From the NCBI RefSeq assembly GCF_003334315.1, contig NZ_QOWR01000042.1: DNA of 43,339 bases; one strand, written 5' to 3'. Each line of letters begins with the position of its first letter. Position 1 is the first letter of the stretch. A program made the position numbers and the translations under genes. Origin of the DNA: Escherichia coli. GTDB lineage: Bacteria; Pseudomonadota; Gammaproteobacteria; Enterobacterales; Enterobacteriaceae. Below the pieces are notes generated by a model. It worked only from the letters and a program-made list of their open reading frames with translations. It ran no database searches and was not told where the DNA came from. Shown here in pieces: positions 1,197 to 25,493 of the stretch.

Positions 1197-2958
<1,762 letters not shown>

Positions 2959-3825
2959 TTAAGGGCGTGCGAGGAAATTCAGCACCAGTTGATTGAAAGC
3001 GTCGGCATGTTCCCACTGCGCCCAGTGACCACAGTCGCGGAAGATATGCAGTTCAGAACCGGCAATGCCGGACAGCAGACGCAGCCCCGCATCCATCGGC
3101 ACAAAGCGGTCGTTGCGCCCCCAGACAATCAGGGTTTGCGCGTTGATTTCCGCCAGACGTGGGCCAAAATCCGGGAACTGTTTCGGATTAGCTTCCAGGC
3201 TCTTAACGAAGTTTTCCAGGTGATCGCGGCGCGACAGCATATTATTCAGGCGCGCTTCAAACAGGGCGTCGGTCAAATCGCTGGTATCAAAAACGAAGAT
3301 ATCCATCATCAGCTTCAGGTTTTCGATAGTCGGCTGACGATAAAGCTGATTCAGTCGCTTAATACCTTCGGTTGGCATCGGCGTAAACAAACTCATGCCG
3401 CCCGTACCGCCGCCCATCAGCACCAGTTTGCCGACGCGCTCCGGCCAGTTAAGGGTGAACGCCACAGAACTATGGCCGCCCATCGAGTTGCCCAGCAGGT
3501 GGATTTTGGCGATATCCAGTTGATCCACCACACTTTTCAGGATTCGTGCATTAAGATCCGATCGCGAACCACTATTAACGATCGAATCGCTCTTGCCCCA
3601 ACCCGGACAATCCAGCAGGATCACCCGATAGCCCGCCTCTACCAGCGGATCGATATTGCGGCTGAAGTTCGCCCAGCCAGTAGCACCCGGGCCGGAACCA
3701 TGCAGCAGGACAACGGTTTCGTCGCCTTGTCCGCAGTCATTAAAATGGATGCGCAGCGTTTTACCCGCTTCTTCTACATTCAGAAAACGGCTGGTGGCGG
3801 CTTCGGTTTGTGGCTGATAACTCAT
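2959..3825 (-). CDS. mhpC: 2-hydroxy-6-oxononadienedioate (meta-cleavage product) hydrolase
   Basis: Alpha/beta hydrolase with GNSMGG nucleophile elbow; the ORF extends to 3888 but I chose the internal ATG (MSYQPQ...) giving 288 aa, which avoids overlap with mhpB; the start is uncertain. Confidence 0.8.
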
Positions 3826-16373: not shown

Positions 16374-17273
16374 ATGCTCTCTCGACATATCAATTATTTT
16401 CTTGCCGTGGCTGAACATGGCAGCTTCACCCGTGCCGCCAGTGCGTTGCACGTCTCCCAACCTGCGCTTTCCCAGCAGATTCGCCAGTTAGAGGAGAGTT
16501 TAGGCGTGCCGCTGTTTGACCGTAGCGGGCGAACGATTCGTCTCACTGATGCAGGAGAAGTCTGGCGACAGTACGCCAGCCGGGCGTTACAGGAACTGGG
16601 GGCGGGTAAACGGGCGATTCATGATGTTGCCGATCTGACGCGAGGATCGCTGCGTATCGCCGTCACCCCCACCTTTACGAGCTACTTTATCGGCCCCTTA
16701 ATGGCGGATTTCTATGCGCGCTATCCCAGCATCACGCTCCAGCTACAGGAAATGTCGCAGGAGAAAATCGAGGATATGCTTTGCCGCGACGAGTTGGACG
16801 TTGGGATTGCCTTCGCGCCTGTGCATTCGCCGGAGCTGGAGGCAATTCCTTTACTGACAGAAAGTTTAGCGTTAGTCGTGGCGCAACATCATCCGCTGGC
16901 CGTCCATGAACAGGTGGCGTTGAGTCGCTTGCATGATGAAAAACTGGTCCTGCTCAGCGCGGAATTTGCCACCAGAGAGCAAATTGACCACTACTGCGAG
17001 AAAGCGGGGCTACATCCACAGGTGGTCATTGAGGCGAACTCAATTAGCGCGGTTCTGGAGCTGATTCGCCGCACTTCCCTTTCCACATTGTTACCAGCAG
17101 CGATTGCCACACAACATGACGGGCTTAAAGCTATTTCTCTTGCCCCGCCACTACTGGAGAGAACGGCGGTTTTGTTGCGGCGGAAAAATAGCTGGCAGAC
17201 AGCCGCCGCGAAGGCATTTTTGCACATGGCGTTGGATAAATGCGCGGTTGTTGGCGGAAATGAATCACGGTAG
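16374..17273 (+). CDS. cynR: LysR-family regulator of the cyn operon
   Basis: ORF 16290-17273; internal ATG ([40 protein letters not shown]) gives 299 aa; divergent from cynT. Confidence 0.8.
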
Positions 17274-17588
17274 CCGCTGACACAGGTCTGCGGCTGGAAT
17301 TGCCTGATGCGCTACGCTTATCAGGCCTACGAGTTCAGTGCTCTACGTAGGCCGGATAAGGCGTTCACGCCGCATCCGGCATAAACTACAGCTGGCAGAC
17401 AGCCGCTGCGAAGGCATTTTTGCACATGGCGTTGGAGGAATGCGCGGTTGTTGGCGGGAATGAATCACGGTAGCCGCTGACACAGATCAGCGGCTGGAAT
17501 TGCCTGATGCGCTACGCTTATCAGGCCTACGAGTTCAGTGCTCTACGTAGGCCGGATAAGGCGTTCACGCCGCATCCGGCATAAACTA
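17191..17588. repeat. Tandem direct duplication (2 x ~200 bp) of the cynR 3' end plus REP pair
   Basis: 17191-17388 and 17391-17588 are about 97% identical (6 mismatches); each unit holds the last ~28 codons of cynR, a short hairpin and a REP pair. Confidence 0.8.
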
Positions 17589-17609
17589 AGCTCGCTGTAA
17601 CCCAGTCGT

Positions 17610-18893
17610 TCAACGTTTGTAATCGATGGCTTCTGGCTGCTCCAGATATACGGTGGTTTGTGCCGGTTGTGTGCTGGCAATCACCTTGCCGCCACGTACC
17701 GAATAACGTACCGGAACCTGACGGCGCAGCGCATCAAACCCATTTTCAGCCGGCAGGATAATCAGGTTGGCGCTGTTTCCGGCGGCAATGCCGTAATCCT
17801 GCAAATTCAACGTCCTTGCGCTGTGGTGGGTGATTAAATTCAGGCCATCGTTAATCTGCCCGTAGCCCATCAACTGGCAAACATGCAGCCCCATATGCAG
17901 CACTTGCAGCATATTCGCCGTTCCCAGCGGATACCACGGATCGAAGACATCATCGTGACCAAAGCAGACGTTAATGCCGGACTCCAGCATCTCTTTAACG
18001 CGCGTGATGCCGCGACGTTTTGGATACGTATCGAAACGTCCTTGCAGATGAATATTGACCAGCGGGTTGGCGACAAAGTTAATACCGGACATTTTCAGCA
18101 AGCGGAACAGGCGTGAGGTATACGCCCCGTTATAGGAGTGCATTGCCGTGGTGTGGCTGGCGGTGACTCGCGCGCCCATGCCTTCATGGTGCGCCAGGGC
18201 AGCAACGGTTTCGACAAAGCGCGACTGCTCGTCATCGATCTCATCACAGTGAACGTCGATGAGACGGTCGTATTTTTGCGCCAGGGCGAAGGTTTTATGC
18301 AGCGACTCCACGCCGTATTCACGGGTAAATTCAAAATGCGGAATCGCCCCCACTACATCTGCCCCTAAGCGTAACGCCTCTTCCAGCAACGCTTCACCGT
18401 TGGGATACGACAAAATCCCTTCCTGAGGGAAGGCGACGATTTGCAGATCAATCCACGGCGCGACTTCCTGCTTCACTTCCAGCATTGCTTTCAGCGCAGT
18501 TAGCGTTGCATCCGAAACATCGACATGGGTACGCACATGCTGAATGCCGTTGGCAATCTGCCATTTCAGCGTTTGCCATGCGCGTTGTTTCACATCGTCA
18601 TGGGTTAATAACGCTTTGCGCTCGGCCCAGCGTTCAATGCCTTCAAACAGCGTGCCGGACTGATTCCAGTTCGGTTGTCCGGCGGTTTGCGTGGTGTCCA
18701 GGTGAATATGTGGCTCCACAAACGGCGGTATAACTAAACCTTGTTCGGCATCCAGGCTGTTTTCAGTTATGGGCATCACGCCGGATTGCGCATCAATGGC
18801 GCTGATTTTTCCGTCCTGCAGATGAATCTGCCACAGCCCCTCTTCGCCTGGTAACCGGGCGTTAATAATTGTTTGTAAAGCGTTATTCGACAC
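17610..18893 (-). CDS. codA: Cytosine deaminase
   Basis: Amidohydrolase with metal-binding HIH (EPHIHLD); GTG start giving 427 aa ([10 protein letters not shown]...); overlaps the codB 3' end by 11 bp. Confidence 0.9.
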
Positions 18894-20294: not shown

Positions 20295-20560
20295 GTAGGC
20301 CTGATAAGACGCGTCAGCGTCGCATCAGGCATCTGAGCATGGTGTCGGATGCGGCGCGAGCGCCTTATCCGACCTACGGTTCAGACCTGTAGGCATGATA
20401 AGACGCGCCAGCGTCGCATCAGGCATCGGCGCGGGGTGTCGGATGCGACGCGAGCGCCTTATCCGACCTACGGTTCAGGCCTGTAGGCATAATAAGACGC
20501 GGTAAGCGTCGCATCAGGCATCGGCGCATGGTGTCGGATGCGCCACGCGACGCATCCGAC
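20295..20560. repeat. BIME (three ~97-bp REP-pair units) between codB upstream region and the prpE 3' end
   Basis: Three tandem units of GTAGGCCTGATAAGACGCG...GTCGGATGCGGCGCGAGCGCCTTATCCGACCTAC. Confidence 0.8.
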
Positions 20561-25147: not shown

Positions 25148-25189
25148 GTTGTCCTCGTCATTGTTATCATTTGTAGGGTCGGGATTGTT

Positions 25190-25468
25190 GTCGGATGCGA
25201 CGCCATGCGTCTTATCCGACCTACAGTTCAGTTCACCCCGCAGGCCTGATAAGCCGCGTCAGCGGCGCATCAGGCATCGGTTGTCGGATACGACGCCATG
25301 CGTCTTATCCGACCTACAGTTCAGTACATCCCGTAGGCCTGATAAGTCACGTCAGCGGCGCATCAGGCATCGGTTGTCGGATGCGACGCCATCCGTCTTA
25401 TCCGACCTACAGTTCAGTGCACCTCGTAGGCCTGATAAGTCGCGTCAGCGACGCATCAGGCATCGGCT
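25190..25468. repeat. BIME (three 93-bp units) within the prpB-prpC intergenic region
   Basis: Units start at 25190, 25283 and 25376; GTCGGATGCGACGCCATGCGTCTTATCCGACCTAC... alternating with GTAGGCCTGATAAG... Confidence 0.8.
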
Positions 25469-25493
25469 GTCGAATACAATCAACGGGCGTTTT

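Follow-up and report, generated by a model that had tools for sequence, protein, structure and literature searches.

The 200-bp tandem duplication found between the convergent genes cynR and codA of the window (the whole stretch of Escherichia coli DNA that was analysed, 43,339 nucleotides) is very probably an old duplication of single origin, founded by a homology-independent join, later altered in copy number by unequal crossing-over, and of little phenotypic effect. The repeat is real and ordinary, since it is normal in K-12 and in approximately one quarter of E. coli strains and is mentioned in the literature; it is the K-12 allele, already known, and other alleles of this spacer are common as well. 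Ton-Hoang et al. 2012 (NAR 40:3596, PMC3333891) give codA-cynR in E. coli as an example of gene-fragment sequestration by a BIME, and assign Supplementary Fig. S7 to it; the locus and the species are the same, and structurally nothing appears to be different. No other paper linking cynR with BIMEs was found in the literature searched, and a search on REP, duplication and RAYT gave nothing further of relevance. The present analysis adds population frequencies, the structure of a 3-unit allele, the outgroup state, and a misfit with the C|T cleavage rule.

Structure of the duplicated module

A direct-repeat search identified two 199-nt direct repeats (17190-17388 and 17390-17588, 97% identical, spacing 200), and TRF reported a tandem repeat at 17190-17592 (period 200, 2.0 copies, 96% matches, 0% indels, score 755). 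Alignment of 17190-17389 with 17390-17589 by MAFFT gave seven differences (unit positions 18, 48, 49, 69, 97, 100 and 200) and no indels, an identity of 96.5% over 200 nt that is well past chance level. All differences except that at position 200 lie in the first half of the unit, and unit positions 101-199, comprising the REP pair and its tail, are identical in the two copies. The original prediction had placed the units at 17191-17388 and 17391-17588 with six mismatches, which are six of the seven found by MAFFT, and the pairwise alignment that it proposed as a check came out far above the identity of approximately 80% that it had set as its lower limit. With head-to-tail copies, high identity, a constant period, a single-copy state in relatives, and an observed arrangement that is reproduced by duplicating that single copy, this is a tandem segmental duplication, and its parts are those predicted (the 3' end of cynR, a hairpin and a REP pair).

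Unit 1 (Table 1) begins at an exact codon boundary and consists, in order, of cynR codons 273-299 with the TAG stop codon (17190-17273), a 24-nt hairpin that overlaps the stop codon, GGAAT, a z2 iREP, a 16-nt linker (GAGTTCAGTGCTCTAC) across which the z2 REP and the y REP stand head-to-head, the y REP, and a tail, TAAACTAC. The cynR reading frame is intact because unit 1, which contains the last 84 nt of the gene, supplies its full 3' end. The second copy of these 84 nt had been called an orphan, and it is one: no ORF of at least 25 aa is present in its frame, and in PGAP annotations it stands as a partial pseudogene of 84 nt ("hypothetical protein, incomplete, missing N-terminus"). The spacer between the two convergent genes is 336 bp. 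The C-terminal tail of CynR is polymorphic at codons 288-289 (17236-17241), where the K-12-type ending differs from that of many strains (for example, ...ALEECADVGENESR), with an intermediate D-E in E. whittamii and E. coli strain 100117.

Table 1. Features of the cynR-codA region, with positions in the window
Feature	Position	Strand	Evidence
cynR (LysR-type regulator, 299 codons + TAG)	16374..17273	+	ORF call; RefSeq naming (CynR) of identical DNA
Repeat unit 1, 200 nt	17190..17389	+	direct-repeat search, TRF, alignment
Hairpin 1, AGCCGCTGAC-ACAG-GTCTGCGGCT, 10-bp stem with one T.T mismatch	17272..17295	.	inverted-repeat arms and fold
z2-type REP of unit 1, iREP orientation, CTAC at end	17301..17330	+	exact 30-mer match
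y-type REP of unit 1, 5' GTAG	17347..17381	+	exact 35-mer match; sub-threshold Rfam naRNA4
Repeat unit 2, 200 nt, orphan copy of the unit 1 module at +200	17390..17589	+	7 differences from unit 1
Orphan cynR 3' fragment, 27 codons + TAG, without 5' part	17390..17473	+	alignment, ORF list, PGAP
Hairpin 2, AGCCGCTGA-CACAGA-TCAGCGGCT, 9-bp perfect stem	17472..17495	.	inverted repeats and folds
z2-type iREP of unit 2	17501..17530	+	exact-string match
y-type REP of unit 2	17547..17581	+	exact-string match; sub-threshold Rfam naRNA4
Unique right flank GCTCGCTGTAACCCAGTCGT, reaching the codA stop codon	17590..17609	.	sequence comparison
codA (cytosine/isoguanine deaminase), convergent with cynR	17610..18893	-	ORF end at 17610; RefSeq length 1284 nt

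A canonical BIME-2 array at 34951-35496 of the window (period 93, 5.9 copies) contains the z2 30-mer and the y 35-mer of the units letter for letter, which identifies the REP pair, by sequence, as an ordinary BIME-2-type module: a z2 REP and a y REP of inverse orientation, with GTAG/CTAC, are separated by a short linker, in keeping with the definition of BIME-2 (z2 and y REPs, S and s/l/r motifs) in PMC3333891. The Rfam family naRNA4 (REP-derived nucleoid-associated RNA) matches the two y REPs at 39.4 and 38.3 bits, below its gathering threshold of 59.5, and these matches amount to generic REP similarity only. The cynR-codA array resembles canonical BIME-2 arrays such as that at 34951-35496 in its REP sequences, their inverse orientation, its tandem layout and its strain-variable copy number, with alleles of 0, 1, 2 and 3 units among strains. 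The 200-bp unit is nevertheless atypical because unique DNA, including coding sequence, belongs to the repeat: canonical units are approximately 93-101 bp in length and contain only REPs and short linkers, whereas in the cynR-codA unit the outer linker is replaced by 115 nt of unique DNA (the 84 nt from cynR, the non-REP hairpin and GGAAT) together with the tail.

Three canonical BIME arrays of the window (20295-20542, 25187-25477 and 34951-35496; period 93-94 bp; 2.6, 3.1 and 5.9 copies, respectively) differ from their MG1655 counterparts by approximately +1, -1 and +2 units, unlike the 200-bp array, the copy number of which is equal in the window and in MG1655. The window itself begins within the mhpE-mhpT BIME array (1-140, with an exact y REP at position 101), which in MG1655 has a period of 101 and 4.4 copies.

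Distribution and history of the repeat

Over a 543-bp stretch that spans the 3' end of cynR, the spacer and the 3' end of codA, the window is identical to K-12 MG1655. The original prediction of a structural variant relative to the reference does not hold, as the spacer of MG1655 is also exactly 336 bp. Among 5426 complete E. coli genomes, 1541 (28%), including DH1 and W3110, contain the junction of units 1 and 2, as detected by a 70-nt probe that spans it (at least 80% coverage), and BL21(DE3) and NCTC86 match a unit-plus-junction probe in full, as do 2-unit genomes. The identical allele is present in MG1655, DH1, W3110, BL21(DE3), NCTC86 and more than 1300 further genomes finished independently. 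An artefact of assembly, whether by collapse or expansion of a repeat or by a mis-join, for which there is only the general risk attached to repeats, is therefore rejected as an explanation; its probability is practically nil, given an identical allele in MG1655 and over a thousand genomes finished independently with different technologies, the recurrence across genomes of the seven diagnostic sites between the units, and the internal consistency of each of the 1-, 2- and 3-unit alleles.

Spacers of six lengths were observed: 39 bp, with the hairpin alone and no REPs (locus L006); 120 bp, with the hairpin and a REP pair carrying an internal 16-nt deletion (L011, strain 100117); 132 bp, with the REP pair and a truncated hairpin (O157, L005; MSHS133, L010); 146 bp, with one full unit (VREC0761, L004; CX08, L015); 336 bp, with two units (K-12 MG1655 and the window); and 536 bp, with three units (L003 and L012). 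By rough estimates from evenly spaced rows of the probe-match listing, three units are present in approximately 5% of genomes, two in 23% and one in 17%, while 27% have no BIME and 28% have no cynR. The original prediction that the repeat is a potential site of further amplification is borne out by the 3-unit allele: approximately 216 records from complete genomes match a probe for the transition from one second-type unit (U2) to another at 99% identity or more, and at least 60 genomes contain the whole allele at 100% identity. None of the 5426 genomes matched a synthetic 4-unit query in a single piece.

The 16-nt deletion of the 120-bp spacer took away the end of the linker together with the 5' portion of the y REP (…CAGTGC|AAGGCGTTCAAGCC…), and this single-unit allele is an example of BIME erosion at the locus. 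In strain 11899A_LBHALD (NZ_CP130447.1, positions 2171-3751; L013), the orphan fragment and the junction adjoin remnants of an IS3-family transposase, with a truncated DUF6531/Rhs-type gene beside a T6SS vgrG also nearby, and no cynR is annotated in the 5.2-kb stretch examined; this locus is rearranged or misassembled. The window as a whole is 99.4-99.9% identical to MG1655, with differences in BIME copy number. At 43137-43339 it contains the left end of an IS1 element (GGTGATGATGCCAACTTACTGATTTAGTG...), inserted upstream of pdeL in the source strain; the corresponding yahV-pdeL intergenic DNA of MG1655 is uninterrupted, and the source strain is therefore K-12-like, not MG1655.

Outside E. coli, when one genome per species was scanned for the pattern, the 3' end of cynR turned up only in Escherichia whittamii, which has a single unit followed by ACTAC|GCTCGCTGTAAC, with a short right flank of the K-12 type. 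The addition of a second copy of the first 200 nt to this 224-nt stretch (the 200-nt unit and 24 nt of flank) gives 424 nt, exactly the K-12 length. The starting state was one copy of the cynR 3' end, the hairpin, the z2/y REP pair and the tail, directly followed by that flank, a form that is still present in E. whittamii and in single-unit E. coli strains. In each of the five single-unit alleles with the REP pair, ACTAC is followed by GCTCGC, and the same is true of the second unit of the divergent 2-unit alleles of strains M8 and 18SZHZ655Rt (C at the unit end); the C-to-A change at position 200 of the last K-12 unit is, judged from these alleles, derived. The alleles of M8 and 18SZHZ655Rt also have the K-12 junction, together with the states at positions 18, 48, 49, 97 and 100 that distinguish the first type of unit (U1) from U2. 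That such divergent alleles share both the junction and the distinguishing sites points to a single origin of the duplication.

The inter-unit divergence of 3.5% is high for an event within a species, and requires either considerable age or allelic recombination. The coding variant of U1 (GATAAA...GGAAAT) is a natural cynR allele found in the single-unit strain MSHS133, and VREC0761 and CX08 have that of U2 (GAGGAA...GGGAAT) as their cynR allele. Compared with U1, the CX08 unit has differences only at positions 48, 49 and 69, which are clustered; compared with U2, it has them at positions 18, 97, 100 and 200. Recombination with other cynR alleles would account for the clustering, and the pattern favours recombination into unit 1 over decay of the orphan copy.

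Once two direct repeats are present, copy number rises and falls via RecA-dependent homologous exchange. The 3-unit allele has the order U1, U2 ending in C, U2 ending in A, so that its middle unit is a hybrid, with the states of U2 at positions 18-100 and that of U1 (C) at position 200; its left part is that of the distal unit and its right part that of the proximal unit. This is the product expected of a crossover in positions 101-199, and the structure of the allele thus suggests that copy number changed by unequal crossing-over within the REP half of the unit. After the duplication, homologous exchange in this 100% identical half would have generated the U1-U2-U2 allele. Homologous exchange between direct repeats would shift copy number at cynR-codA as in other REP-associated duplications. 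The recombining homologies in classical REP-mediated duplications are two distant REPs, and the duplicated segments span kilobases; at cynR-codA, in contrast, the unit itself encloses the REP pair, and the founding join was free of homology.

The founding junction

The junction of the two units is ACTAC|AGCTGG, with 0 nt of microhomology: aligned in register, the two sites have no common base to the left of the join (…AAAAAT versus …ACTAC) or to its right (AGCTGG versus GCTCGC). The original prediction had invoked a short motif shared at the junction, and hence a duplication mediated by short homology. ATAAACTA was found at 17381 and 17581 alone, where the units end, and the sequence upstream of unit 1 is GCGGAAAAAT; the arrangement expected of a microhomology-mediated duplication, with the same motif at both sites and one copy left at the junction, is absent, and that part of the prediction fails. 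Because the join is without microhomology, it was presumably illegitimate and homology-independent. In a single event, cynR codon 273 (AGCTGG...) would have been attached to the base that lies 8 nt beyond the y REP (...ACTAC), so that the hairpin, the REP pair and 84 nt of cynR coding sequence were copied. Candidate agents of such an event include template switching at REP hairpins during stalled replication, gyrase-associated illegitimate recombination at a BIME-2, and the REP-associated transposase TnpA_REP.

Slipped-strand or microhomology-mediated duplication between two copies of a short motif, the mechanism originally predicted, is improbable. Apart from the missing left-hand copy of the motif and the lack of identical in-register bases on either side of the join, recombination at GCT, a trinucleotide found at unit positions 2-4 and again directly after the unit in the ancestral flank, 1 nt out of register, predicts a period of 199 nt and the junction ACTACGCTGG, whereas the period is 200 and the junction is ACTACAGCTGG. 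There is, in addition to GCT, a loose A-rich similarity near the two sites (AAAAATAGCT versus AAACTACGCT), and stalling of polymerases by REP hairpins, reported in PMC3333891, favours template switching; GCT slippage together with a 1-nt insertion yields the observed junction, and slippage at weak homology is therefore compatible with it.

Somewhat less improbable, yet still unlikely, is the origin by TnpA_REP that the same paper proposes for codA-cynR itself. In this model, the Y1 transposase TnpA_REP (RAYT) binds the y or z2 REP, cuts single-stranded DNA on both sides and rejoins it, adding a BIME with part of cynR; cleavage at C|T at a distance from the BIME captures flanking sequence, and rolling-circle-like amplification is proposed (PMC3333891). 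In vitro, C|T cleavage by the enzyme reaches across more than 400 nt of DNA surrounding a BIME (PMC3333891). The model gains from the presence of GTAG/CTAC in both REPs, from their letter identity to the REPs of the canonical BIME-2 arrays in the window, from the variation of those arrays in copy number relative to MG1655, and from the C|T dinucleotides that lie within the unit at 3 nt from either end (AGC|TGG and AAC|TAC). The y REP, with the same GTAG as the y REPs of the other arrays, is a candidate binding site of TnpA_REP, the gene for which lies outside the window. However, when all top-strand joins of one C|T to another were enumerated from the ancestral flanks, none gave the observed junction, the nearest (ACTACGC|TGGCAG) being one A short; on the bottom strand there is no C|T at the right-hand site; and the observed join keeps 3 nt beyond each nearest C|T. 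The junction is not a fusion of two C|T or CC|T cleavage sites, and therefore does not fit the simple TnpA_REP model, to which processing of the ends could still apply. It is improbable that the array is an in vivo footprint of TnpA_REP which captured host coding sequence at a distance from the BIME. If TnpA_REP made the join, its rules of cleavage and joining in vivo must differ from those in vitro, for example by end processing, and the single-unit alleles of E. whittamii and CX08 would be defined substrates for reconstituting the event.

Consequences of the extra unit

The hairpin that follows cynR shows a compensatory change of A:T to G:C in its stem among alleles (AGCCACTGAC/GTCAGTGGCT versus AGCCGCTGAC/GTCAGCGGCT), and perfect versions exist, which suggests that the hairpin itself matters and that its stem is possibly under selection. 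Stem variants were observed at loci L006, L011 and L014, with an A.C intermediate in E. whittamii, and the K-12 hairpins (17272-17295 and 17472-17495) have a different single mismatch in each unit. The hairpin is probably a 3'-end structure for the convergent transcripts, and the orphan fragment would be untranslated pseudogene sequence in their shared 3' region.

Any phenotypic effect of the additional hairpin and REP pair is most likely slight or nil, and at most they would add 3'-end protection of the REP type, or spacing. That the extra unit is functional and selected, modulating termination, stability or cynR expression through its hairpin and BIME or through the orphan cynR antisense segment borne on a codBA read-through transcript, is very improbable. 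Such a role might be read from the frequency of alleles with two or more units (28% of genomes), the fixation of the 3-unit form in successful clones, the strong folding of the spacer RNA on both strands (z-scores of -5.9 and -6.0) and the one compensatory pair change among hairpin alleles. However, clonal descent accounts for the allele frequency, strong folding is expected of any REP-rich sequence, and alleles of 0, 1, 2 and 3 units coexist within E. coli. A scan of the spacer found no promoter-like site and no canonical intrinsic terminator after either hairpin, and the Rfam matches are sub-threshold and REP-like; the sole terminator-like matches are weak minus-strand stems within cynR (17190-17207), at chance level.

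In itself the repeat matters little, as an allele of the reference genome that is present in the REP/BIME literature and leaves cynR intact. It is a clean natural example of a REP/BIME module that took part of the adjacent gene into a tandem array, the 200-bp repeat of which then shifts copy number (1, 2 or 3) within one species. Under automatic annotation, the orphan pieces end up as spurious partial "hypothetical protein" pseudogenes. Models of BIME amplification are constrained by the homology-free junction to a small extent.
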